Origin: Hyphomicrobiales bacterium
Lineage (GTDB): Bacteria; Pseudomonadota; Alphaproteobacteria; Rhizobiales; NORP267
Reading direction: 5' to 3'
Assembly (NCBI GenBank): GCA_021775875.1
Contig: JAJFHA010000020.1
Coordinates: 25,544 to 89,543 of the forward strand
DNA: 64,000 nt
The notes beneath the pieces are model-generated. The model did no database searches and was not told the DNA's origin. It saw only the letters and a list, made by a program, of their open reading frames with translations. This document shows, one piece after another, positions 39,514 to 60,813 of the stretch (position 1 is its first letter; each line of letters begins with the position of its first letter). Position numbers and translations under genes: made by a program.

Positions 39514-40122
39514 CTAGAAGAAACCACCATTCTGCGCAGCGACCATGCAGAACAGCATGGGAAACGACAAAAGCGTGTTGGTGCGCGAAAACAGCATCGC
39601 GGTGCGTGCTGAAGCGGCCTTGCTGTCGGCGTCGGCTTCAACAATGCCCAAAGCCCGTTTCTGGTTTGGCCAGATCACGAACCAGACGTTGAACCACATG
39701 ATAACGCCGAGCCACATGCCGATCCCGATCGGGGTGCTGGCACCGCCATCTGTGATGCCGAGTGTTAGTGCGTGGCCCAGATATTTATTCATCGCCGCTA
39801 CGATCAGTCCGGTGACGATGGTGCCCATGGCTGCCCAGCGGAACCACCAAAGGGCTGCTGGTGCGATCACCTTGCCGATGGCAGGTTTCTGGTCGTCCGG
39901 AATGTTTGGCATATTCGGGATTTGCACGAAATTGAAATACCAGAGCAGGCCGATCCACATGACGCCATTCAGAACATGGAGCCAGCGGAAGAAGAACGAG
40001 TACCAGGCATGATCAAGCTCAAAGCCTGCGCCATTGGTTGCCCTGATCGCAACGAAGAGAATGACCGTCAGGATGATCCCGGCGATCACGGTTGATTTAA
40101 GATTGGATAAAATTCCACCCAT
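39514..40122 (-). CDS. integral membrane protein, urate hydroxylase PuuD-like membrane domain (no cytochrome c domain)
   Basis: 202 aa from ATG 40122. Has 4-5 hydrophobic helices, and WLHVLNGVMWIGLLWYFNFVQ resembles the COG3748/PuuD membrane module as I remember it. Confidence 0.6.
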   Translation of the reverse strand: MGGILSNLKSTVIAGIILTVILFVAIRATNGAGFELDHAWYSFFFRWLHVLNGVMWIGLLWYFNFVQIPNMPNIPDDQKPAIGKVIAPAALWWFRWAAMGTIVTGLIVAAMNKYLGHALTLGITDGGASTPIGIGMWLGVIMWFNVWFVIWPNQKRALGIVEADADSKAASARTAMLFSRTNTLLSFPMLFCMVAAQNGGFF

Positions 40123-40206
40123 GGGAGTTTCCCCTTTGTTGGGTCCAGGCCGCGACAGGCGGCGAGAACCATTGCCCACTAAGAATGATAGTTGCGCGGA
40201 ACTTAA

Positions 40207-40584
40207 ACGATTCCAGGGTGGGCAGGCAAGGATTACAATTTATACGGATATCTACCCCCGCCCCGCTATTCCGGCAATCAGCGCCGCTACGGACGGGCGT
40301 CGCTGGACCGCCTGAAATTCATCCGCCATTGCCGCAACCTCGGCTTCGGCCTCAACGCCATCCGCGAATTGCTGTCGCTGTCCGAAAACCCGAACCAGTC
40401 CTGCGAAGCGGTTGATGAATTGGCCAGCAAACACCTGGTAACGGTCACCCAGCGCATCGAGCAACTACAAACCCTGCGCGATGAGCTAACCCGCATGACA
40501 AATGCCTGCGCCGGCGGCATTGTCGCCGATTGCCGGGTGGTTGAGGTGTTGGCCGATCACGCGCGGTGTGACGAGGAGCATTGA
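40207..40584 (+). pseudogene. MerR-family regulator remnant lacking an intact N-terminal HTH
   Basis: The frame translates to ...RYSGNQRRYGRASLDRLKFIRHCRNLGFGLNAIRELLSLSEN...ACAGGIVADC..., which covers the MerR wing, dimerisation helix and a Cys-rich effector end. The frame is closed by TAA at 40204-40206, and only a degenerate DYNLYGYLPPP stands where IRYYE-IGLL should be. The first ATG in frame is at 40369. Confidence 0.5.
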
Positions 40585-40777
40585 GGGGAAGTGCAAGAAG
40601 AGAATCACGGCGAATGGTATGAATATCTGTTGATTTTTAGGTGCAGAGTAAACATGTCTGATTGTATTTTGCGGCGATTCAAAAATTTCAGCAGCAAGTG
40701 AAAGGCATAAATAGGTAGTGCCGATCATCAACGATTCCGGACAAAGGCAATCGGTCTCTAGGTTATTTTTTAACCGG

Positions 40778-41284
40778 TCATCGTCTCATAGATTTGTCGA
40801 CACACCGAATAACAGCTTTTCCATGTACGTAAGAATTTCTGAGGTCATTATAGGTGGCTGTGTGCGGCCAAGTGCCTTGATGTACAAATTGATGACGCCA
40901 AACAATCAGGTTTCCATAGCTGCTTCTAACGCTACCTAGACGATTCGAGAGTGACTCTTCCTCAACGATCTTTAATTCGCGCTTGAAACGTTCACGATAC
41001 TTTTTGCCAAAGCAAGAAATATGCCGGTCTTCAATGTCTTTGATTTTGATTTGACCATTAAGACGTTCAAATTTACTGCGAGCCAATTCCCCCAAAGCTC
41101 GATGTTTCTCATCGGCAAAACGGTACAGCACATCCTTTATGGCGAGCTCGTAGGCGGTGACTGCAGATACAGCCAAGAAGCCAAGATATCTCGAAACAAT
41201 AAAATCGTCCGCTAGGCTAATTATGACGTCATCCACATGTGATAGATAGTCGTCAGCTTGAGAAAATCGATCTTCGAAGGACAT
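40778..41284 (-). CDS. HEPN-domain protein (Rx4H motif; RiboL-PSP/MAE-type HEPN-like)
   Basis: 168 aa, predicted helical, with the C-terminal motif WRHQFVHQG (R-x4-H). Its start lies 1 nt after the stop of the upstream DUF262 gene. Local composition is AT-rich. Confidence 0.65.
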   Translation of the reverse strand: MSFEDRFSQADDYLSHVDDVIISLADDFIVSRYLGFLAVSAVTAYELAIKDVLYRFADEKHRALGELARSKFERLNGQIKIKDIEDRHISCFGKKYRERFKRELKIVEEESLSNRLGSVRSSYGNLIVWRHQFVHQGTWPHTATYNDLRNSYVHGKAVIRCVDKSMRR

Positions 41285-41285
41285 T

Positions 41286-42371
41286 TTACTGCAATCGCAG
41301 TTGAGCGATCCGAAGTCGTTCTTTTACAGTGATGGCGTCGCTGGTATTGAAAAAAATAGAATTTTGAAAATTCTCATCCTTATATAACTCTTGGATCTTT
41401 CCATTCAGGTCTTTGGGAAGTTTAGACGTTTTAGGCAGCAAGACTGTGTAGACGGCATCAAGCGCCGCAAGATTTATTGGGCCGCGAACGTGGAATGGCC
41501 GTTCCCCTAGTAGTTCTAACAACTCTGCAGTAAGAATTTTGAATTTTGAGGCAAATTCCTTGAACTTTTTGGTTCTGGCCGATCTATGGGTTGCCATTGC
41601 ATTGTTTAGGAAATTTTTCATCGGTTTTTCGTAAACGTCATTACTGGAATAAAATGCGAAAGTTCGCAGAATAATTTCTACGTCTCGCTGATGTTTTTCA
41701 GGTTTCGGCCTTCCAATAATTTTGCGCCATTCTGGCATTTCGTTTAGCTCTCTCAGGGCTCTCACAATGTCTCCCGAAAACACGCAATTGCGAATTTCTT
41801 GCGGACGCAATGGGGTGCCTCCAGTGTTAAGTCTTTCAAAGATGTAATACATGCTTGTATCATTTTCGATTGGTGCCAATTGCTTGATATTGACCACCCG
41901 CATCACTGTATTTCGAAGTTTCCTTTGATCCGCATCAGAAAGGTCTTCAAAACGTTTTTTTACATATGGACTTTTCTCATCCAAGCCAATCAAACGAAAT
42001 ACTTGACGCCTACCTTTATCGTTTTCGACGCCAAAATAGCCTTCAAAAAAGAAAACGATGCTAGATATTCGTTGCAGCCCATCAATTACTAGCCGACGTT
42101 CATTTTCATCAACGTAAAAAAATACTTGAGGGACAGGCAGGCCCAGTAAAAAAGACTCAATCAATAGCGACGACTGGCGGATTGTCCAAACAAAATTCCG
42201 CTGAAATTCCGGAATCTCAATTTCACCTTCATCCCACATGTCCGCGAGCCCTTTTAGGGTGTAGTCAGATGGATAGATATTCAAATCAAAATTGACAAAA
42301 TGTTCGGAATCTTCGTTGTTCACATCAATTTCGAGACCTTCATCCAGGTCAGTATTATTTAATTTCGCCAT
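41286..42371 (-). CDS. DUF262 (ParB/Srx-fold, GmrS-like) domain protein
   Basis: 361 aa. Has the hallmark motifs IPEFQRNFVW, VIDGLQR (DGQQR-type) and FERLNTGGTPL. The C-terminal ~130 aa are helical, with no His-Me/DUF1524 motif that I can see. Confidence 0.85.
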   Translation of the reverse strand: MAKLNNTDLDEGLEIDVNNEDSEHFVNFDLNIYPSDYTLKGLADMWDEGEIEIPEFQRNFVWTIRQSSLLIESFLLGLPVPQVFFYVDENERRLVIDGLQRISSIVFFFEGYFGVENDKGRRQVFRLIGLDEKSPYVKKRFEDLSDADQRKLRNTVMRVVNIKQLAPIENDTSMYYIFERLNTGGTPLRPQEIRNCVFSGDIVRALRELNEMPEWRKIIGRPKPEKHQRDVEIILRTFAFYSSNDVYEKPMKNFLNNAMATHRSARTKKFKEFASKFKILTAELLELLGERPFHVRGPINLAALDAVYTVLLPKTSKLPKDLNGKIQELYKDENFQNSIFFNTSDAITVKERLRIAQLRLQ

Positions 42372-42463
42372 ACTCTATCTCGCAAACTACCCAATTGATG
42401 AATATCCAGTTTGGCTGACAACCAACATAAAGCTGGATAAATCGAGGGCTTAATCGATTCCCC

Positions 42464-43675
42464 CTAAAAAAACGCCTGAATGCCCGTCTGCGCTCTACCC
42501 AGTATCAGGGCGTGCACATCGTGCGCACCCTCATAAGTATTTACTGTTTCCAGGTTCATGACGTGGCGCATGATCGGGTATTCGTCCGAGATGCCGTTGG
42601 CGCCGTGCATGTCGCGGGATTGGCGGGCGACGTCGAGGGCTTTGCCGCAATTGTTGCGTTTCATCAGGGAAATTGAGGTTGGCGCGGCGGTGCCGGCTTC
42701 CAGCATGCGCCCCAGCGCCAATGCGCCGTGCAGGCCAAGGGCGATTTCGGTTTGCATGTCGGCGAGTTTCTTCTGGATTAGCTGGGTGGCAGCCAGTGGG
42801 CGGCCAAATTGTTTGCGATCCAGTGTGTATGAACGCGCACCGTGCCAGCAGGCTTCGGCAGCCCCCATCGCGCCCCATGCAATGCCGTAGCGGGCTTTGT
42901 TCAGGCACCCGAACGGGCCGCTCAAACCCTTGACATTGGGCAACAGGTTTTCTTCCGGCAGGAACACATCTTCGAGCACAATTTCGCCGGTGATCGAGGC
43001 GCGAAGCGAAAGCTTGCCTTCTATTTTCGGTGTCGAGAAACCATCCATACCGCGCTCGACCACAAAGCCATGAATGCCTTCGTCTTCAAGCTTGGCCCAG
43101 ACCACCGCGATATCCGCAATTGGCGAATTGGTGATCCACATCTTGGTGCCGTTCAGCTTGAAGCCGCCGTCAACCCGCTTGGCGCGGGTACGCATGGATG
43201 CGGGGTCAGACCCTGAATCCGGTTCCGTCAGGCCAAAGCAACCGACATGTTCGCCGCTCGCCAATTTGGGCAGATATTTCTTGCGCTGGTCTTCGGTCCC
43301 ATAGGCGTAAATCGGATGCGCAACCAGGCTATTCTGAACGCTGATCGCGGAGCGGTAACCGGAATCGACGCGCTCTATTTCCCGCGCGATCAGGCCATAC
43401 GCCACATAATCCAGCCCGGCTCCGCCATATTCTTCCGGGATCATGATGCCAAGCAGGCCAAGGGCACCGGCTTCATCCATGATTTCGCGGTCAAAACGTT
43501 CTTCCTGGAACGCTGAGCGGACACGGGGTTGCAGCTTGTCGGCGCAAAATTGCTGGACCGAATCCCGGATCATCCGTTCTTCTTCGGTCAGTTGGGCTTC
43601 AAGCCCAAGCGGGTCTTCCCAATTGAATTCGCCAATACGTTCCGCCACATCAACCTTCACCGCTGCTTCAGCCAT
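42464..43675 (-). CDS. gcdH: glutaryl-CoA dehydrogenase
   Basis: Acyl-CoA dehydrogenase fold with a GcdH-type N-terminus ([23 protein letters not shown]). I chose ATG 43675, preceded by ggaagga. Confidence 0.9.
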
Positions 43676-43772
43676 GCCTTGTCCTTCCAATTATTTGCCG
43701 GCCCGCTTCCGGCGTCTGCCATGCTTTTTACAGGGGATGGCGCTGCCATCAAACCTTTTTTACCGGCACATA

Positions 43773-52874: not shown

Positions 52875-54549
52875 TATCCTGTTTCCACCGGGGTTGGTGC
52901 TGATACTGGCAGGCCTGATGTTGCCGCTGATGGGCGAGCGGTTCCGGGCACCGACAATTCTGATCGCGCCGCTTATCGCGTTTGCGATTGTATGGCTGTT
53001 GCCGTCAGGGCCGGTGCTCACGTTTCAGTATATTGGCTACGAATTGGTGCCGCTCAAAGTGGATTCCCTGAGCCGGTTGTTCGGGACGATTTTCACAATT
53101 ATGGCATTTGCGGGTGGGCTGTTTGCCCTGAAGCAGGAACGCGTTCTCGAACTGGCGTCCGCCTTCGTTTATGCAGGCTCGGCGCTGGGCGTAGTTTTCG
53201 CCGGTGACCTGATCACCGTGTTTATTTTCTGGGAATTGATGGCGGTCGCTTCAACCCTGTTGATCTGGTCAAGCGGCGGCAAGGCGCTCGCAGCGGGCCA
53301 GCGTTATGTGATGATACATTTGCTCGGTGGCGTCATTTTGATGGCGGGCATTGCGGGCGAAATTGTCTCTACCGGGTCAATCGCATTTGAAGCCATGGAC
53401 ACAAATTCATGGCCACGCTGGCTGATCCTGGCAGGGTTTCTTATCAATGCGGGTGCGCCGCCACTGGCCGCGTGGTTGCCGGACGCATATCCCGAAGCCT
53501 CTTGGTCTGGCACGGTGTTCCTGTCGGCATTCACGACAAAAACCGCTGTTTTTGTGCTGTTGCGTGGCTTTCCCGGTGCTGAAATTCTGATCTATATCGG
53601 GCTGTATATGGTTTTTTATGGGATCGTATATGCGATTCTGGAAAACGATATGCGTCGCATTCTGGCCTATTCCATCATCAACCAGGTAGGCTTCATGGTA
53701 ACCGGTATCGGCATCGGCACTGAAATGGCGCTCAACGGAACCGCCGCCCACGCCTTCGCTCACATTATCTACAAAGCCCTGTTGTTGATGTCGGCTGGTG
53801 CAGTGCTCTACCAAACAGGAAAGCGAAAATGCACCGATCTTGGAGGCTTGTTCCGAACCATGCCGATAACAGCTACCTGCGGTATTATCGGCGCGTTATC
53901 AATCTCCGCGTTTCCACTGACATCCGGCTTCATCTCGAAATCGATGATTAGCCAAGGTGCGGCAGACGAGCATATGATGATAGTCTGGATGTTGCTGGCG
54001 GCGGCCTCAGCAGGCGTTTTTCTTCACGCTGGCATCAAATTTCCCTGGTTTGTCTTCTTCCAGAAAGATTCCGGCATGCGGCCATCAGAACCGCCCCGCA
54101 GCATGCGTTACGCCATGTATATCATGTCTGTTCTGTGCATCGGTCTTGGCGTGTTCCCTGGCCCACTCTATGCGCTGCTGCCCTATCCTGTTGATTACGT
54201 GCCCTATACCGGCGCCCATGTGGTGTTCCAGTTGCAATTGCTGCTTTTTTCAGGGCTCGCCTTCTTCCTGCTATTGAATCTGCTGAAGCGTACCCTGACC
54301 ATAACGCTCGATTTCGACTGGTTCTATCGAGGCTTGGGCCGGGTGCTGGCGCGCGAATTTGACAATATGTCGATTGCCGCATGGACAGCGTTTGTCGAGA
54401 GCGGCTACCGCGCCGTGCAAAGCTTCATCTCAGCCATCTATCGTCATTATGGCCCCAACGGCATTCTGGCGCGGACCTGGCCGACCGGAAATATGGCTTT
54501 CTGGACAACCGCATTATTAGCGACATATTTGCTGATTTTCTTCCTTTAG
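52864..54549 (+). CDS. Mrp-type antiporter subunit D/A-like (NuoL/M-like), copy 3
   Basis: 561 aa. Carries LAAWLPDAY, LAYSIINQVGF and HIIYKALLLM. Confidence 0.85.
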   Translation: MMIDILFPPGLVLILAGLMLPLMGERFRAPTILIAPLIAFAIVWLLPSGPVLTFQYIGYELVPLKVDSLSRLFGTIFTIMAFAGGLFALKQERVLELASAFVYAGSALGVVFAGDLITVFIFWELMAVASTLLIWSSGGKALAAGQRYVMIHLLGGVILMAGIAGEIVSTGSIAFEAMDTNSWPRWLILAGFLINAGAPPLAAWLPDAYPEASWSGTVFLSAFTTKTAVFVLLRGFPGAEILIYIGLYMVFYGIVYAILENDMRRILAYSIINQVGFMVTGIGIGTEMALNGTAAHAFAHIIYKALLLMSAGAVLYQTGKRKCTDLGGLFRTMPITATCGIIGALSISAFPLTSGFISKSMISQGAADEHMMIVWMLLAAASAGVFLHAGIKFPWFVFFQKDSGMRPSEPPRSMRYAMYIMSVLCIGLGVFPGPLYALLPYPVDYVPYTGAHVVFQLQLLLFSGLAFFLLLNLLKRTLTITLDFDWFYRGLGRVLAREFDNMSIAAWTAFVESGYRAVQSFISAIYRHYGPNGILARTWPTGNMAFWTTALLATYLLIFFL

Positions 54550-54557
54550 AAACGTTC

Positions 54558-54644
54558 AGATTTTCAGTGGTTTCCTTGTTCAATTTTTAGGATTTCCCAG
54601 AATTTTGTCGGATTTCCGATGTAATTTGCTGGTGTTTCCGATTG
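54558..54644. repeat. four tandem ~20-23 bp direct repeats (aATTTt-n3-GGaTTTCC)
   Basis: The TTTCC cores start at 54571, 54593, 54613 and 54635 (spacing 22/20/22 nt). Each is preceded about 10 nt upstream by an ATTT(T) block. Confidence 0.8.
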
Positions 54645-54863
54645 ACATAGGTTAATGATCAGATCACGTACTAAATTTTGAATTAGGCTTTTTACTGGCA
54701 AAAATGAATAGCTAGCAAATATTTTCAATTAGATATTGAATATTCGAAATTAAATTGCTATTTGCCAGAAAAGCATTCTGTTGTATCCGAGACAATGGAA
54801 GCTGCGGGATAACTTTATAGATTCAATGTGAAAATTGCACCTATCTCGGAAAGGGCTAGAAAT

Positions 54864-55292
54864 ATGACAGATAATAGTGTTGAGCAAGATAGTATCTTGA
54901 TAGAATTAACATCAGATATTGTTTCAGCTTACGTAAGCAACAATTCAACTGTTGCTACCGAATTGCCAGATATAATTCAAAATGTACACACAGCTTTGTT
55001 ACAGGTCACATCAAGCTCCGTTGAAATTGAGAAAGAGCAGCCCAAACCTGCCGTTTCGATCCGGCGCTCGATCACGGATGATTATTTGATCTGTCTTGAA
55101 GACGGGAAAAAATTCAAATCCTTGAAGCGTCATCTGCGCACTCATTATGATTTGTCCCCTGAGGAATATAGAGAGCGTTGGAGGCTTCCGATTGATTACC
55201 CGATGGTAGCGCCCAATTATGCCCGTGCTCGTTCCGAGTTAGCAAAACAGATGGGACTTGGTAGAAAACGTGGCAGCAGAAATAGTTCCTGA
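54864..55292 (+). CDS. mucR: MucR/Ros family zinc-finger transcriptional regulator
   Basis: 142 aa from ATG 54864. [46 protein letters not shown] is the Ros/MucR signature. Confidence 0.9.
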
Positions 55293-55350
55293 TTTTGCCG
55301 CACTGTTGATGGCGGCAATGCTATCCTGTTGAAATGAAAAAATCTATTCA

Positions 55351-55383
55351 AGGTGTGCCGGCTAGTCCCGGTACACCTTTTTT
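55351..55383 (+). terminator. rho-independent terminator of mucR
   Basis: aggtgtgccgg-ctagtc-ccggtacacct forms an 11-bp stem with one G-U pair, followed by TTTTT. Confidence 0.75.
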
Positions 55384-55390
55384 ATTGGCA

Positions 55391-55960
55391 TCATAGATAG
55401 CGGATTTCCATAACAAGTGGTGCAATCCATTCGGCATCCATGTCGAACCAGACCGTGCCCCTGTCTGAAAGCGGCATGAGTGTTAGATTGCGTTCCTGCC
55501 ATGCGGCTCGTCCCAATACCAGCTGATTGGCGATAGTCATTACAAACACATCCCGGCCCTGGATTTCATCGTATTCTTCGCGGTCGAGCCGGTTGGCGAT
55601 CAATGTCGCACCTGCCCGGTATGGGCCAATCGCTCTGGATAACCGTACAGCAACAGGGTCTTGAGCCGGTGATGAGAGTGAAAGACGCTCCAGGTTGCTG
55701 GTATCAGACTCGGCATTGTTCAAGATACCGTCTGGTCCGAGATGCCCATAAACAGGTATTCCGCTAAGCCTTTTGTCTCTGATAAGGTCTACCGCCCGCA
55801 CGGAAAAAGCTTGCGCGAACCGGTCCAGCCAATCGGTGGAAACTGTCATGTTGGCGGTTTCAAGACGCTGTACGGTCTGTGCCGTTGTTCCCACAAGGTC
55901 ACCAACCTGTTGCAGGGTCCAGCCCCTGGCTTTTCTCAACTCTCTAATTCGCGTTTCCAT
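55391..55960 (-). CDS. XRE-family HTH regulator with LexA/S24-like C-terminal domain (no obvious catalytic Ser-Lys)
   Basis: 189 aa from ATG 55960, preceded by ggagaa. The HTH is IRELRKARGWTLQQVGDLVGTTAQTVQRLE. The C-terminal beta-rich domain lacks a G-x-S-M motif. Confidence 0.75.
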   Translation of the reverse strand: METRIRELRKARGWTLQQVGDLVGTTAQTVQRLETANMTVSTDWLDRFAQAFSVRAVDLIRDKRLSGIPVYGHLGPDGILNNAESDTSNLERLSLSSPAQDPVAVRLSRAIGPYRAGATLIANRLDREEYDEIQGRDVFVMTIANQLVLGRAAWQERNLTLMPLSDRGTVWFDMDAEWIAPLVMEIRYL

Positions 55961-56238
55961 ATTTCTCCCCGGTGCCGGTTCTGTTCTTTTTAACAAAATA
56001 GGAAAAAGTTATCCCCGTCTCTCACAAATAGCGTAAAAGTATAAAATAAGGATTTATTCCTACACTTTTAAAGAGAAAATAACAATTTATTGCACGTAAA
56101 GGTAGATAAAAAATGCATCATGTCGAACGCCTACGAAGAGCGGGTCCAAAAACTTCTAGTGTTTTTTTTGCTTCATTTACAGGGCCGGGAAAAAAGGGCC
56201 CAGTGACAAGGAAGCGCCAGGCGCGATCTCGAAAAAAT

Positions 56239-56619
56239 ATGAATCTGCCATCCACAGGGATTTCTGAAAACGGGCTTAAGTCATTATTGGCCGGTGTCGT
56301 TGCCGCAGCTTTTGATCTTCCCGTATATGAAATCACCTCGCCATCACGATGTCGCGCGCCAGTGGCTTTTGCCCGTCAGGTCGCAATTTACCTTGCACAT
56401 GTGGGGTTGGGGTTGAGTTTTACCGATACCGGTCGTGTGTTTCGCAGAGACCGAACAACAGTGGCTCATGCCTGCAAAATTGTGGAGGAGCGTCGCGACG
56501 ACGCCTGTCTTGATGCATGTCTGGATTATCTGGAAGCGGCATTACGGCTACGTTTGGACGCTAGGGAAAAATACCAGCGCACCCTCGAACACGAAAACTG
56601 TGACGGGGAGCAGTTATAA
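56239..56619 (+). CDS. DnaA domain IV-like HTH protein (GafY-like?)
   Basis: FARQVAIYLAHVGLGLSFTDTGRVFRRDRTTVAHACKIVEERR matches the DnaA C-terminal DNA-binding domain pattern. The start is uncertain: ATG 56239, or upstream to 56113. Confidence 0.6.
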   Translation: MNLPSTGISENGLKSLLAGVVAAAFDLPVYEITSPSRCRAPVAFARQVAIYLAHVGLGLSFTDTGRVFRRDRTTVAHACKIVEERRDDACLDACLDYLEAALRLRLDAREKYQRTLEHENCDGEQL

Positions 56620-57401
56620 TGGATAGACCAAACAACAGGATTATTCAGCGTGCTCTGCGTAAACTTGTACGTCTGCCATTGGGTATGTCGGCTGACAATA
56701 TAAACCAAGAAATGCTGGCCACGTTGTGGCGGCTTGATCTGGTGGATCACCAAAAAGACGATGATTGGAAAATCAGCGAATCTGGCAGGGCGTGGTTGCG
56801 CCGCGAAATGTCAGGGTCGGACCCTTGGCTAACTCAGCACCGCGATTTAGGCGAGGCAATCGTTGAGATTGATGGCAAACGCTGCAAAGTTGCCATCAAT
56901 CTGGAAGAATCGCCCCTGTCATGGCTTCGAAAAAGGAAAGGTGCGGGTGGCAAGCCATTATTGGATGACGCGCAATTCGCTGCTGGCGAGCGCCTCCGTA
57001 CAGATTTTACCCGTGCACAATTGACACCACGCGTAACTGCCGATTGGTCGGCAATGGCCAGAACCCAGACCAGACATAGTGGCGGCGCTGGAGGAGGTGT
57101 TGAAATGTTTGATTCAGTAGTCGCCGCCCGCCAGCGGTTTAACAAGGCTATAGAAGTGCTCGGGCCGGAATTGTCGCCAGCACTCATAGATATTTGTTGT
57201 TTCCTGAAAGGGCTGGAAATTGCTGAGCGAGAGAATAACTGGCCAAAGCGCTCGGCTAAACTGGTGCTCCAAATCGCGCTTTCCGGTCTGGCCCGGCATT
57301 ACGGCCTCTCGGTATCACCGAAATCTCAACATCGCCAAGTGTCGTACATGCGCCGCTGGGGAACACCCGACTATCGCCCTGAAATTGATCCTGAATTGTG
57401 A
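56619..57401 (+). CDS. hypothetical protein, DUF6456-like (GafZ-like?)
   Basis: 260 aa. Its start overlaps the preceding stop (TAATG). The family call comes from memory of the usual partner of DnaA_C-only proteins in alphaproteobacteria. Confidence 0.55.
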   Translation: MDRPNNRIIQRALRKLVRLPLGMSADNINQEMLATLWRLDLVDHQKDDDWKISESGRAWLRREMSGSDPWLTQHRDLGEAIVEIDGKRCKVAINLEESPLSWLRKRKGAGGKPLLDDAQFAAGERLRTDFTRAQLTPRVTADWSAMARTQTRHSGGAGGGVEMFDSVVAARQRFNKAIEVLGPELSPALIDICCFLKGLEIAERENNWPKRSAKLVLQIALSGLARHYGLSVSPKSQHRQVSYMRRWGTPDYRPEIDPEL

Positions 57402-57408
57402 AATACGA

Positions 57409-57837
57409 TTAGTGCGCCGGGCTGATTGCCTGGCGCGCATCGTGCTTTATCCGCTCGACCATCGAGAACAAACCGTTGGAGCGCTGGGGGGTCAGATGTT
57501 CCTTGAGACCCAGCTGGTTAAATATCTCCATTGGATCAGTATCGATGATCTCGGTAGCGGGCCGGTTTGAAAACATCGCGATCAGAATGGCAACAAGGCC
57601 GCGCACGATATGGGCATCGCTGTCCCCGATGAAACTCACCAGAGGTTCTCCCTGATCATTCTTGCTATATTGCGCGCTGAGCCAAACCTGGCTCACACAT
57701 CCATTAACCTTGTTGGCGTCCGTCCGCTCATCATCGGGCAGTGGTGACAACGCTTTGCCCAACTCGATGACATATCGGTAGCGGTCTTCCCAATCGTCGA
57801 GAAACTCGAAATCATCAATTATGGTACTGATCGACAT
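57409..57837 (-). CDS. sufE: SufE family cysteine desulfuration protein
   Basis: 142 aa from ATG 57837. Carries DDWEDRYRYVIELG and the active-site region VNGCVSQVWL. Confidence 0.9.
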   Translation of the reverse strand: MSISTIIDDFEFLDDWEDRYRYVIELGKALSPLPDDERTDANKVNGCVSQVWLSAQYSKNDQGEPLVSFIGDSDAHIVRGLVAILIAMFSNRPATEIIDTDPMEIFNQLGLKEHLTPQRSNGLFSMVERIKHDARQAISPAH

Positions 57838-57930
57838 GGTCCAATAAAGCTCCGCGAACAAGCATATGAAAAACTGCAATGTATATAGGGTTTAGCCGCA
57901 TGAATGGCTAATGGCGAAGCATTTATTGTG

Positions 57931-57987
57931 GGAAAAAAAGATGCGCCGCAAGCGATAAAGGGCAGGTGAAAACCGCTTGCAGCGCAT
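57931..57987 (-). terminator. rho-independent terminator downstream of 58086 gene
   Basis: Arms of 14 nt (57941-57954 and 57974-57987) pair at 13 of 14 positions around a 19-nt loop. On the minus strand the hairpin is followed by TTTTTTT. Confidence 0.65.
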
Positions 57988-58085
57988 GGCAGGTAGGTAC
58001 TGCCAATCTTGTCAGGCTCGTAGTCGCGAGAAGCCCTTATTCGTATCAAGTCTCGCGGAGCCAAATTCTATCAGTATGCAGGCCT

Positions 58086-58484
58086 TTAGGCGTTGTTGCC
58101 CGGTCCTTCCCAACCTGGCTGCAGATCGCTCTGGCTCAGGGTGTTTTGGCTGGAAGGCGCAGGTATTGCGGCATTTGACGCAGACGCAGGACTGGTTGCC
58201 GGTGCAGTGGCACCTTCTTCAGCTACATAATCCATCAGCAACTGGGCACCATAACGGGCCTTGTTGGTGAAAGTTTCTGCTGCGGCGCGGCCAGCAAGAC
58301 ATACTTCAGGTGAGCGTTCACATATAGAAGACACATCGGTGAGCGTCGCTCTTGCGGCTTGGAAAACTTCACTCGCGCTGATTTGGTTGCTGGATTGCTG
58401 CCCATCGGCGCCATCAATGGCCCGCTCAGCAGGAAGAAGAAGAATAACTACAGAAAGCCAGAAGGCTGTGCGAATAAGAAACAT
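58086..58484 (-). CDS. small membrane-anchored protein (DUF5330-like)
   Basis: 132 aa from ATG 58484. The N-terminus MFLIRTAFWLSVVILLLP resembles DUF5330 proteins as I recall them. Confidence 0.55.
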   Translation of the reverse strand: MFLIRTAFWLSVVILLLPAERAIDGADGQQSSNQISASEVFQAARATLTDVSSICERSPEVCLAGRAAAETFTNKARYGAQLLMDYVAEEGATAPATSPASASNAAIPAPSSQNTLSQSDLQPGWEGPGNNA

Positions 58485-58643
58485 TGTTTTTGCCCTTTCA
58501 AGTTTCGATTTCGCTGTTATAGCAATCAATATTTTATATTTGAAGAAATATTGGAAGTATATTTAAATATAATCTTATTTAAACTTGAATAAAATTTTAT
58601 ATACTATTGTTTTAATCAAAATAGATACAAATTAGAGGCAGTA

Positions 58644-58685
58644 TTGATTCAAGTTTTAGCTAATTGAAAAACAAATTTGAATCAA
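58644..58685. repeat. 13-nt imperfect inverted repeat in AT-rich intergenic region
   Basis: ttgattcaagttt (58644-58656) and aaatttgaatcaa (58673-58685) are complementary at 12 of 13 positions, with a 16-nt spacer. Confidence 0.7.
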
Positions 58686-58896
58686 ATTGTAATTATTAAA
58701 AATCACGTAATTTCAAATAGTTAGCCGGAAAGAAAATTGAAACAAGCGGTTCAAGCTACTGCAAAATGACTGGTTTGGAGTTGCAAAAGCTAGCGTATTT
58801 GCGCGAAAACCCGAAATTATCCGATTTCCAGGCAGAGTTTTGTTAGCCATCCATTTACCAACAAATCCATTCAGTCTGCAAAAAAAAATCCAAGAT

Positions 58897-58922
58897 AAAA
58901 AAACCGCGGAATTCAGCGGTTT
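58897..58922 (-). terminator. orphan terminator-like hairpin
   Basis: aaaccgc-ggaattca-gcggttt forms a 7-bp stem. On the minus strand it is followed by T-rich tracts (TTTTATCTTGGATTTTTTTT). No annotated minus-strand gene lies upstream of it. Confidence 0.4.
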
Positions 58923-59073
58923 ATTGAAATACAGCAAATCCGCCGTTTCATGCTTCATTAAAGAGGGAATGGGACCATAGGGCCATAACAAATTGAAGAA
59001 GCGCGTGTAAGTGCTGGAGTGTGGTGTGAGTTTGCGTAACAATTTTCCCGGTCTTGAAAGCTGGTTTGAAGCT

Positions 59074-60813
59074 ATGGTCCATCCGTCGGTCGTTGGTAAC
59101 CCGGTGGCTGTGGCTAAAAACAGATCATTTATATCTTCTCATATTCTTGGCGGCCTGATCGCGCTTTGCGTCATTCCTGTCTATCTGGCGGTCTATGGAG
59201 CCCCTGATCTGGTTGAAGCGCTGGCGTTCGCCTGGTTTGTATCCCCTGTTGCCATTGCCTTATTTCTCTCCCGGACAGGGCGTTTTGAAGTAGCGCATGC
59301 CATTTCGACCCTGAATCTGGTTGGACTTGTCAGTTTCGCTGCTATTATGACCGGCGGACTGGGGTCATTTCTAATTGCCTGGATGCTGGTTGTGCCGTTT
59401 GAAGCGGCATTGTCGGCGTCAAAACGGGTTATCGGATCTGCAATACTTTTTGCGATGCTCGCGCTAATGGGCCTTTGGGGCGTGGAATTTCTCGGATTAC
59501 TGCCATCGCCGCGCAATCTCGGCTTTAACAATGACCTGTTGATTTTGTTTGGGGTAGGATCCGCAATCGCCTATGCCGGTGGTGTGGCCTTGTCTGTATA
59601 TAATATACATAAAGAGACTGAGCAGGTTGTGCTGGCGTCAGAGCGCCGCTATCGCCTGATGTCTGAAAATGCATCTGACTTGGTCACCCGGCACCGTCCG
59701 AACGGCCATGTATTATATGCCTCGCTTGGCGCGGAGCGGGTTGTTGGAACATCCGCAGACAAATTGATGGCTGATGGCTTGTTCGACCGCATCCTGGTTT
59801 CTGACCGCCCGGCATTCCTGACAGCGATCGCAAAAGCCGCACGAGGCGGGGAAGAGACCACGGTCGAATTTCGTCTCAACCGGCAAATTGGCGACAGGGG
59901 GCTGGAGCCGGGCGAGTTTTTCTGGGCCGAAATGAGATGCCGGAAACTGGATGACGCGGCGCATAATGATGAAATAGTCGCGATCACAAGAGATATTTCT
60001 GAGCGCAAGGCTCAGGAGCAGACATTGCTTTTGGCCCGTGAAGAAGCTGAAAAAGCAAGCCAGGCCAAAACCCACTTTTTGGCCAATATGAGTCACGAAT
60101 TGCGGACCCCGCTCAATGCAATCATTGGGTTCTCTGAACTGCTATCAAGTTCTAATAGCGGTCCGGCACAAATTGTGCGCGACCAGGAATATGCCAACCT
60201 GATCAATGAAAGCGGTCTGCATCTGCTTGATCTTGTGAATGGCATACTGGATATGTCGCGGATTGAAACCGGAAGTTTTGAAATCATCACTGAGCATTTT
60301 GATGTCCGGCCGGTCGTTGATATCTGTTGTCAGATTGTCAGACCGCAATTACTCAATCGCAATATGGAAATTGTACAGGACATGGGGAATGACCTGTCTG
60401 AAATTGTTGCAGATGAACGAGCTGTCAAACAGATCCTTTTGAATCTCCTGTCCAATGCTATCAAATTCTCTGAACAAGGCAGCCGGATTTATGTTGGTAC
60501 TTCAATCGTGGCGGATTCTCTGGTGCTCTCCGTCAGGGATACAGGAATAGGTATCTCTAAAGAAAATTTGCCACGCCTGGGAAGTCCGTTTTTTCAAATA
60601 GACGCGTCCTATAACCGTAACCATGAAGGCACCGGGCTCGGCCTGTCAGTGGTGAAAGGCCTGGTAGATCTTCATAAGGGCGGCATGGAGATTGAGAGTG
60701 AATTGAATGTTGGAACGACAGTAACGGTACGGCTTCCGGTTGGCGGTATAGAAGAATTTTCTCAATCTTCAGATTCTGGTGAGACCCGTGCTGTATTTCT
60801 GAAATCAGCATGA
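59074..60813 (+). CDS. membrane-bound PAS-domain sensor histidine kinase
   Basis: Has about 5 N-terminal transmembrane helices, a PAS region, H-box MSHELRTPLNAIIGFSELL, an N-box, and G2 GTGLGLSVVKGLV, with no receiver domain. The start is either ATG 59074 or GTG 59011. Confidence 0.85.
   Translation: MVHPSVVGNPVAVAKNRSFISSHILGGLIALCVIPVYLAVYGAPDLVEALAFAWFVSPVAIALFLSRTGRFEVAHAISTLNLVGLVSFAAIMTGGLGSFLIAWMLVVPFEAALSASKRVIGSAILFAMLALMGLWGVEFLGLLPSPRNLGFNNDLLILFGVGSAIAYAGGVALSVYNIHKETEQVVLASERRYRLMSENASDLVTRHRPNGHVLYASLGAERVVGTSADKLMADGLFDRILVSDRPAFLTAIAKAARGGEETTVEFRLNRQIGDRGLEPGEFFWAEMRCRKLDDAAHNDEIVAITRDISERKAQEQTLLLAREEAEKASQAKTHFLANMSHELRTPLNAIIGFSELLSSSNSGPAQIVRDQEYANLINESGLHLLDLVNGILDMSRIETGSFEIITEHFDVRPVVDICCQIVRPQLLNRNMEIVQDMGNDLSEIVADERAVKQILLNLLSNAIKFSEQGSRIYVGTSIVADSLVLSVRDTGIGISKENLPRLGSPFFQIDASYNRNHEGTGLGLSVVKGLVDLHKGGMEIESELNVGTTVTVRLPVGGIEEFSQSSDSGETRAVFLKSA

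Follow-up and report, generated by a model that had tools for sequence, protein, structure and literature searches.

The stretch of 64,000 nucleotides (nt) analysed here, hereafter the window, belongs to a Hyphomicrobiales bacterium (assembly GCA_021775875.1, contig JAJFHA010000020.1) and contains an AT-rich islet of two adjacent genes, A and B, which encode a DUF262/ParB-like protein and a small HEPN protein. We consider it probable that this islet was acquired horizontally and is an anti-phage cassette of the PD-T4-2 type, working by the mechanism proposed below, and a role in defence or abortive infection is the best-supported reading of the pair. The architecture already has a name. An earlier note on this DNA, made from the sequence alone, had stated that no characterised system with these two genes was known; this does not hold, because PD-T4-2 combines a DUF262 protein with a PF18735 HEPN protein and has been shown to defend against phage T4 (PMC9519451). 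The claim fell on the very point that the note had named beforehand as fatal to it, a match to an already named defence system. The pair in the window is a further example of this architecture, with a divergent HEPN subtype.

A two-gene unit of foreign composition

The two genes lie on the same strand, A first, and a single nucleotide separates the stop codon of A from the start codon of B in the list of open reading frames (ORFs); the earlier note had given both minus-strand ORFs, and their coordinates, exactly. The start of B one nucleotide past the stop of A suggests translational coupling.

That the islet is AT-richer than its surroundings, as first noticed by eye, is borne out by systematic counts. 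In windows of 300 nt, the GC content is 0.40-0.43 over positions ~40650-42450, against ~0.55-0.63 on either side. A and B combined have a GC content of 0.418, the lowest of all 1594-nt windows in the 64 kb (mean 0.529, standard deviation 0.029, z = -3.8 for A and B), and the GC content at third codon positions is 0.40 in each of the two genes, against 0.60-0.71 in neighbour genes. The islet, foreign in composition, is probably a horizontally acquired minimal two-gene unit in an alphaproteobacterial chromosome.

The extent of the transferable unit (Table 1) is given by nucleotide homology to its nearest relative elsewhere, the locus L175. When the window was compared with L175 by blastn, the two were 79% identical and aligned only from 16 nt upstream of the start of A to 31 nt past the stop of B, the flanks being unrelated. 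The copy in L175 is bracketed by short palindromes at positions 1-40 and 1790-1879 (GAATGTCCGC / GCGGACATTC), which may be elements of its host resembling repetitive extragenic palindromes; none comparable flank the copy in the window. Of five long loci, four show the pair with a lower GC content than its host, as in Roseovarius (0.42 vs 0.65). An identical copy of the window locus is present in the assembly of an independent read set.

The DUF262 protein

The only Pfam match of protein A (E <= 1) is to PF03235, GmrSD_N/DUF262, with E = 1.3e-27, and at this threshold it has neither DUF1524 nor any other nuclease domain. The earlier description of A as a DUF262 protein without a His-Me nuclease is therefore correct, since PF03235 is its only match and all three motifs of the family are present: EFQRNFVW at residue 55, DGLQR at residue 97, and FERLNTGG at residue 178. 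The motifs, written QRxxxW, DGxQR and FxxxN, are invariant among 40 homologs of A, in which residues Q57, R58, W62, D97, G98, Q100, R101, F178 and N182 never vary.

On sequence evidence, A is predicted to comprise two domains: a DUF262/ParB-like nucleoside triphosphatase (NTPase) domain at about residues 28-200 and, C-terminal to it, a helical domain at about residues 200-360 that resembles the C-terminal part of NsnA, or 'ParBDB'. The C-terminal half is assigned to the helical ParBDB domain because three profile models cover A almost fully. These are the PADLOC models NsnA (E = 1.7e-69, model positions 33-376 of 385) and PD-T4-2_A (E = 8e-49, model positions 41-357 of 363), which span nearly the whole protein up to its end at residue 361, and PHROG 2598 (E = 4e-69), which matches nearly end to end. 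Li et al. 2025 relate the domain that they named ParBDB to the middle domains, which bind DNA, of SspE, GmrSD and DndB. The helical domain of A has its counterpart in such a DNA-binding middle domain of NsnA, SspE and BrxU.

The AlphaFold2 model of A has a predicted local distance difference test score (pLDDT) of 80. Its best matches in Foldseek are BrxU (E = 3e-5) and SspE (E = 7e-3), followed by ParB-family CTPases and sulfiredoxin. A sequence search of the PDB with A returned nothing, and neither A nor B matched a model of NCBIfam.

The HEPN protein

Protein B matches PF18735 (HEPN_RiboL-PSP) in Pfam with E = 1.4e-16 and 61.4 bits, against a cut-off of 28.4, and its early classification as a small Rx4H HEPN protein, now of the RiboL-PSP type, is supported by this profile match. 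The motif itself, RHQFVH, is present as described, but it does not end the protein: it occupies residues 130-135 of 168, in the C-terminal quarter. Among 38 homologs with identities as low as 35%, residues N125, R130 and H135 show no variation. The AlphaFold2 model of B is all-alpha, with seven helices and a pLDDT of 92.7. A PDB sequence search with the profile of B gave chance-level matches only, and no solved structure of a RiboL-PSP-type HEPN was apparent in the PDB. From its sequence, B is classed as a small all-alpha HEPN of the RiboL-PSP type, with predicted RNase activity.

Linkage and genomic contexts of the pair

The family of B forms about 100 clusters in a large protein database, all of about 168 residues and all with PF18735; the family of A is far larger. 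The profile of the B family retrieved 81 loci, metagenomic and viral, in which the linkage between the two was assessed. In 73 of these, a DUF262 gene lies directly upstream of B on the same strand; seven of the other eight are cut by the end of the contig within 200 nt of B. The linkage of A to B is thus essentially obligate, as it is found in 73 of the 74 informative loci. The remaining locus, L125 (159-1617, minus strand), carries an IS-type transposase in place of the DUF262 gene, upstream of an intact HEPN gene of the B family, and this orphan HEPN would be predicted to be unregulated or inactive.

The pair is found in diverse contexts. In Roseovarius faecimaris it lies between polA and a gene for a PhdYeFM antitoxin. 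In Thauera it adjoins three integrases and Mrr-type nucleases, and on one metagenomic contig a DUF1016 nuclease, a type IIG restriction-modification enzyme, an SNF2 helicase and an integrase. A related pair is also present in an Akkermansia phage. The closest annotated relative that we found is carried by IncX1 plasmids of E. coli and Salmonella (WP_001287852.1 / WP_000105990.1). It has the same gene order as the islet, its A protein is 44% identical to that of the window over the full length, and its B protein is 26% identical and matches PF18735. It differs in being plasmid-borne, right after the replication initiator gene, and in the length of its B protein (180 residues). In the E. coli IncX1 plasmid NZ_CP102858.1 (28361-30001), the DUF262 and PF18735 HEPN pair overlaps the replication initiator gene by 8 nt, and the pair is a conserved feature of about 20 conjugative plasmids of the IncX1 type from E. 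coli and Salmonella.

Two P2-like phages carry DUF262 genes with other HEPN partners. In the Klebsiella phage ST16-OXA48phi5.4 (28611-30514), the partner is a PF18735 HEPN of 220 residues; in the coliphage Peduovirus P24B2 (NC_049387.1, 30104-31979), it is a HEPN of the MAE_28990 type with 239 residues. The P24B2 pair was considered as a possible PD-T4-2 and rejected on account of this partner. The pairs of the P2-like phages suggest that HEPN partners are swapped on a conserved DUF262 scaffold.

Comparison with PD-T4-2

PD-T4-2, a system included in both PADLOC and DefenseFinder, comes from E. coli ECOR65 and has two ORFs in 1540 bp, listed as 'DUF262, HEPN' in Table S1 of its original description (Vassallo et al. 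2022, PMC9519451). HHpred identified PF03235 in its A protein (99.7%) and PF18735, HEPN_RiboL-PSP, in residues 23-162 of its B protein (97.8%; PMC9519451). Cloned on a plasmid under its native promoter, the system confers protection from T4, and its deletion in the native strain ECOR65 restores plaquing by T4 (PMC9519451). Four site-directed mutants figure in the plasmid list of that study, one of them pCV23, 'PD-T4-2B H127A', and in four cases mutating conserved residues abolished protection (PMC9519451). We translated the mutagenesis primer for H127A and obtained R-N-A-A-A followed by the change of H to A, so that the mutated residue is the histidine of Rx4H. A review of 2023 tables PF18735 HEPN for PD-T4-2 and groups the system with DUF262 systems that lack DUF1524 (PMC10952713). 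The association had been recorded before: a table of Anantharaman et al. 2013 has the entry 'Ribo L-PSP-HEPN ... operon with ParB' (PMC3710099).

The islet has no blastn match in 5,426 complete E. coli genomes, and PD-T4-2 was therefore located with the published primer for its lambda-Red deletion, through the homology arm of 50 nt. This arm matches 17 of the 5,426 genomes, each time at the start of a gene annotated as 'DUF262 domain-containing protein'; the exact 5' end of PD-T4-2 is thus present in only these 17. In E. coli 2009C-3133, the system (NZ_CP013025.1, 3553868-3555503) lies in a P4-like satellite inserted at ssrA, within the defence hotspot that extends from psu to the integrase. 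PADLOC confirms this pair as PD-T4-2 (E = 2e-162 for A and 8e-64 for B). Its A protein has 364 residues when counted from the start codon used in the original description, its B protein has 167, and the gap between the genes is 4 nt.

PD-T4-2 and the pair in the window share several features. Both have A before B, with proteins of 361 and 168 residues in the window and of 364 and 167 in PD-T4-2, and gaps of 1 and 4 nt, respectively. The A proteins are both DUF262 proteins of about 360 residues without DUF1524, and they are 35% identical over 257 residues (BLASTP, E = 7e-40). The B proteins both belong to PF18735 with scores over the cut-off (61.4 bits in the window, 31.4 bits in PD-T4-2), and the Rx4H motif is at R130/H135 in the former and at R122/H127 in the latter, invariant in both families. 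An hhalign alignment of the two B families extends over 133 columns and places R130-H135 opposite R122-H127. Both pairs are carried as small mobile cassettes. They differ in their setting: the host of the window pair is an alphaproteobacterium, in whose chromosome it lies among housekeeping genes, whereas PD-T4-2 is found in the hotspot of a P4-like satellite.

Several observations weigh against classing the islet with PD-T4-2. The B protein of the window is missed at E <= 1 by all three PADLOC models for PD-T4-2_B, BLASTP finds no similarity between this protein and PD-T4-2B, and the hhalign match between their families is marginal (E = 0.0046, probability 7.6%). Because B belongs to a different subfamily, its function cannot be transferred from PD-T4-2 with full confidence. 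On A, the NsnA model outscores PD-T4-2_A, and it does so on the IncX1 and phage homologs too; the reverse is true of the real PD-T4-2A, which scores 538 bits on PD-T4-2_A against 197 on NsnA (1.6e-58). This places the A protein of the window outside the narrow clade of PD-T4-2A. The model of B is confident and all-alpha, but its Foldseek matches in the PDB, led by HEPN toxins of HEPN-MNT systems, are not significant (best E about 1, TM-scores 0.33-0.49); fold-level support for B as a HEPN is suggestive only. In the 92-nt spacer between gcdH and A, there is neither a match to the sigma-70 consensus on the minus strand nor a terminator. This spacer presumably contains a promoter and the 5' leader that serve the cassette, or else is a region of read-through from gcdH, and transcription may start from a non-consensus promoter within it or come from such read-through. 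A literature search found no paper on the mechanism of PD-T4-2. Finally, the comparison of gene order anchored on gcdH involves distant relatives, the best being 75-81% identical in gcdH. The genes msrB, peptidase and gcdH are kept together in the three nearest of them, and the islet is absent downstream of gcdH in all three, which is consistent with acquisition. The earlier note had proposed this comparison for the interval between merR and gcdH; it defined no clean empty site, since the genes downstream of gcdH differ in these three relatives.

The NsnA model scores high on PD-T4-2A and on other DUF262-HEPN pairs, which shows that it is broad. The search for intermediates among B proteins gave nothing, as the distant homologs P0089-P0101 did not match the PADLOC models for PD-T4-2_B either. 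Judged by sequence, the B protein of the window and PD-T4-2B are distant subfamilies of one Pfam family, not orthologs, and PADLOC would probably not call the window locus as PD-T4-2. We also entertain, as a tentative and rather doubtful proposal, that the clade of the window is a distinct subtype of DUF262-HEPN defence, made of an NsnA-like A protein and a RiboL-PSP HEPN subfamily that the PD-T4-2_B models miss. Such a clade could be widespread in Alphaproteobacteria and environmental metagenomes, and it is probably overlooked by current annotation pipelines. Its trigger or RNA target might differ from that of PD-T4-2; the clade might, for instance, respond to a signal other than modified DNA of the T-even type.

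Proposed mechanism

The DUF262 domains of GmrSD, BrxU and SspE sense modified DNA, and binding or hydrolysis of nucleoside triphosphate at DGxQR switches on the fused DUF1524 nuclease. HEPN domains typically dimerise, which creates a composite Rx4-6H RNase site. By analogy with these systems, A is most likely the sensor or regulator and B the effector, a division suggested by the lack of a nuclease in A and by the HEPN gene one nucleotide downstream.

In the mechanism that we propose, A would keep the HEPN RNase inactive by binding B in a complex. Upon infection, the DUF262 and helical domains of A would recognise phage DNA, which may be modified or replicating, and A would bind or hydrolyse a nucleotide at the DGxQR site. 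The ensuing conformational change in A would free or activate dimers of B, whose composite Rx4H site would cut RNA (tRNA, rRNA or mRNA), so that phage gene expression would stop, possibly at the cost of the cell. The sensor role of A, its complex with B, RNA as the substrate, and the abortive outcome are only inferred. Experimental support comes from PD-T4-2 only, by analogy, and consists of the defence against T4 and the reported requirement for the HEPN histidine. The core of this scheme, in which a DUF262 sensor acts through RNA cleavage by a partner encoded in trans, had been put forward in the earlier note and is a reasonable inference.

Alternative explanations and related systems

The pair might instead be a toxin-antitoxin or addiction module, in which B is an RNase toxin of the HEPN kind, A is its antitoxin, and the main role of both is to stabilise the DNA that carries them, with phage defence as a side effect at most. 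HEPN toxins are known from HEPN-MNT systems, and it is such toxins that head the non-significant structural ranks of B. The tight coupling of A and B, the place of the related pair on IncX1 conjugative plasmids, immediately behind the replication gene, and the PhdYeFM antitoxin gene that adjoins the pair in Roseovarius also fit a module of this sort. However, the 361 residues of A are far above the typical size of an antitoxin, and its invariant NTPase motifs argue for a sensing or enzymatic role. In addition, PD-T4-2 defends against T4 both under its native promoter and in the strain from which it comes, and restriction-modification and other defence genes are frequent neighbours. We therefore regard an addiction module as unlikely, with the proviso that the two readings are not mutually exclusive.

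Like HEPN-MNT toxin-antitoxin systems and abortive-infection systems of the AbiF/AbiD type, the islet encodes a small helical HEPN with Rx4-6H, and RNA cleavage is the likely output. Its partner is a DUF262 protein, however, and no MNT nucleotidyltransferase was found with Pfam. The islet also has no RNA antitoxin or repeat array, and no match to Abi_2 in Pfam. An RNA antitoxin or other noncoding RNA, as in AbiF-like systems, was considered and rejected, since the spacers around the genes have no Rfam match, no tandem repeats and no stable fold. In particular, the 193-nt spacer downstream of B lacks Rfam matches and tandem repeats, and its RNA fold is no better than that of shuffled sequence (z = 0.33).

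A second alternative assigns the activity to A, as a DNA-targeting factor similar to type IV restriction enzymes (a nuclease or nickase of the ParB fold, or a recruiter of a host nuclease), with B as an accessory or regulatory subunit. Nuclease activity is reported for some ParB-fold proteins. The closest structures to A are indeed BrxU and SspE, and ParB domains have been treated as DNase domains of restriction-modification systems (Anantharaman et al., PMC3710099). The islet shares with GmrSD, BrxU and SspE the DUF262 NTPase domain with its motifs QRxxxW, DGxQR and FxxxN, and two of these proteins give the best structural matches of the A model (BrxU 3e-5, SspE 7e-3). It differs from them in that A has 361 residues, against about 560-580, and no fused DUF1524 His-Me nuclease, the effector being a predicted RNase encoded in trans. 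The absence from A of DUF1524 or another nuclease domain speaks against DNA as the target, as do the invariance of Rx4H across the B family and the choice of the HEPN histidine for mutagenesis in PD-T4-2, where four point mutants were reported to lose protection. This alternative seems to us distinctly unlikely, though less so than the two that follow.

Menshen (NsnABC; Millman et al. 2022; Li et al. 2025) resembles the islet in the layout of A, a ParB-DUF262 domain with ParBDB as in NsnA, and in sensing as the presumed role of this protein. It differs by its NsnB ATPase and its effector NsnC, an inPIN nuclease, both of which the islet lacks, the partner of A being a HEPN. That the islet is a truncated Menshen, stripped of NsnB and NsnC and with the HEPN gene as an unrelated neighbour, would agree with NsnA being the best PADLOC match of A (1.7e-69), but we reject it as very improbable: neither an ATPase gene nor an NsnC-like gene was found nearby (the islet holds no ATPase gene and no third gene, and the convergent MerR remnant comes next after B), the NsnA model is broad and scores high also on the real PD-T4-2A (1.6e-58) and other DUF262-HEPN pairs, and an obligate linkage of A to B in 73 of 74 informative loci means that B is no chance neighbour.

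AT-rich foreign DNA is often silenced, and the cassette could be an inactive relic, silenced or non-functional and without a present role; the lack of a recognisable promoter, the decayed MerR gene next to it and the Ros/MucR regulator encoded in the window would suit this view, yet both ORFs are of full length, every invariant residue of the families is intact and an identical copy exists in an independent read set, which makes a relic equally improbable.

Implications

As a probable anti-phage cassette, the islet adds an alphaproteobacterial and chromosomally embedded example to the DUF262-HEPN family of the PD-T4-2 type. It also shows that divergence is much faster in the HEPN partner than in the DUF262 one, so much so that the PADLOC models for B miss that of the window, and such a divergent B protein is useful for better detection models of defence systems. 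More broadly, one may ask by what means an NTPase of the ParB fold that lacks a nuclease domain controls a HEPN RNase encoded in trans, a question that concerns PD-T4-2 as well. The pair in the window raises no new question of its own, and its value lies in the mechanism of the family and in detection models. As a compact and well-conserved pair with a confident model of B, the clade of the window could serve as an alternative subject for biochemistry.

Flanks of the islet and other features of the window

The islet lies between gcdH and a decayed MerR gene (Table 1), as the earlier note had recognised. The N-terminal helix-turn-helix (HTH) of the MerR protein is missing, and there is an in-frame stop upstream. 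The remnant is convergent with B and abuts the divergent upstream region of a gene for a membrane protein (39514-40179). A gene call on the identical contig in Logan gives an ORF of 81 codons at 40486-40731 (minus strand), which overlaps the 3' end of the MerR remnant; it has no Pfam match on record and is probably spurious. The wider neighbourhood is made of housekeeping genes, which encode a HerA-like ATPase, a hydrolase of the FAH family, an aminotransferase, a membrane protein with a urate-oxidase N-terminal domain, an S9 peptidase and MsrB. There is no integrase near the islet and no tRNA gene within about 19 kb. The search for target-site duplications or flanking direct repeats gave only chance-level matches of 11-15 nt, so the absence of both integrase and duplication, noted from the start, is upheld.

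Table 1. Coordinates of the islet, its flanks and other features in the window.
Feature	Position	Strand	Description
MerR-family remnant	40204-40584	plus	C-terminal domain intact (PF09278, 4e-9)
3' spacer, stop of B to convergent MerR remnant	40585..40777	minus	193 nt, AT-rich, GC 0.415
Transferable cassette, extent	40747..42387	minus	nucleotide homology to nearest relative elsewhere (L175)
Gene B	40778..41284	minus	ORF of 168 amino acids, RiboL-PSP-type HEPN protein
Gene A	41286..42371	minus	ORF of 361 amino acids, DUF262/ParB-like protein
Spacer, stop of gcdH to start of A	42372..42463	minus	92 nt, AT-rich, GC 0.424
gcdH	42464-43690		neighbour gene
Ros/MucR regulator	54828-55292		in low-GC stretches
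XRE-type HTH protein	55391-55996	minus	in low-GC stretches
DnaA_C-like protein	56113-56619		in low-GC stretches
DUF6456 protein	56619-57401		in low-GC stretches

MucR-type proteins silence AT-rich DNA in Alphaproteobacteria, and the one encoded in the window might repress the islet. Further stretches of low GC content (0.44-0.45) are found at about 53500-56400 and 57300-60150 of the window.

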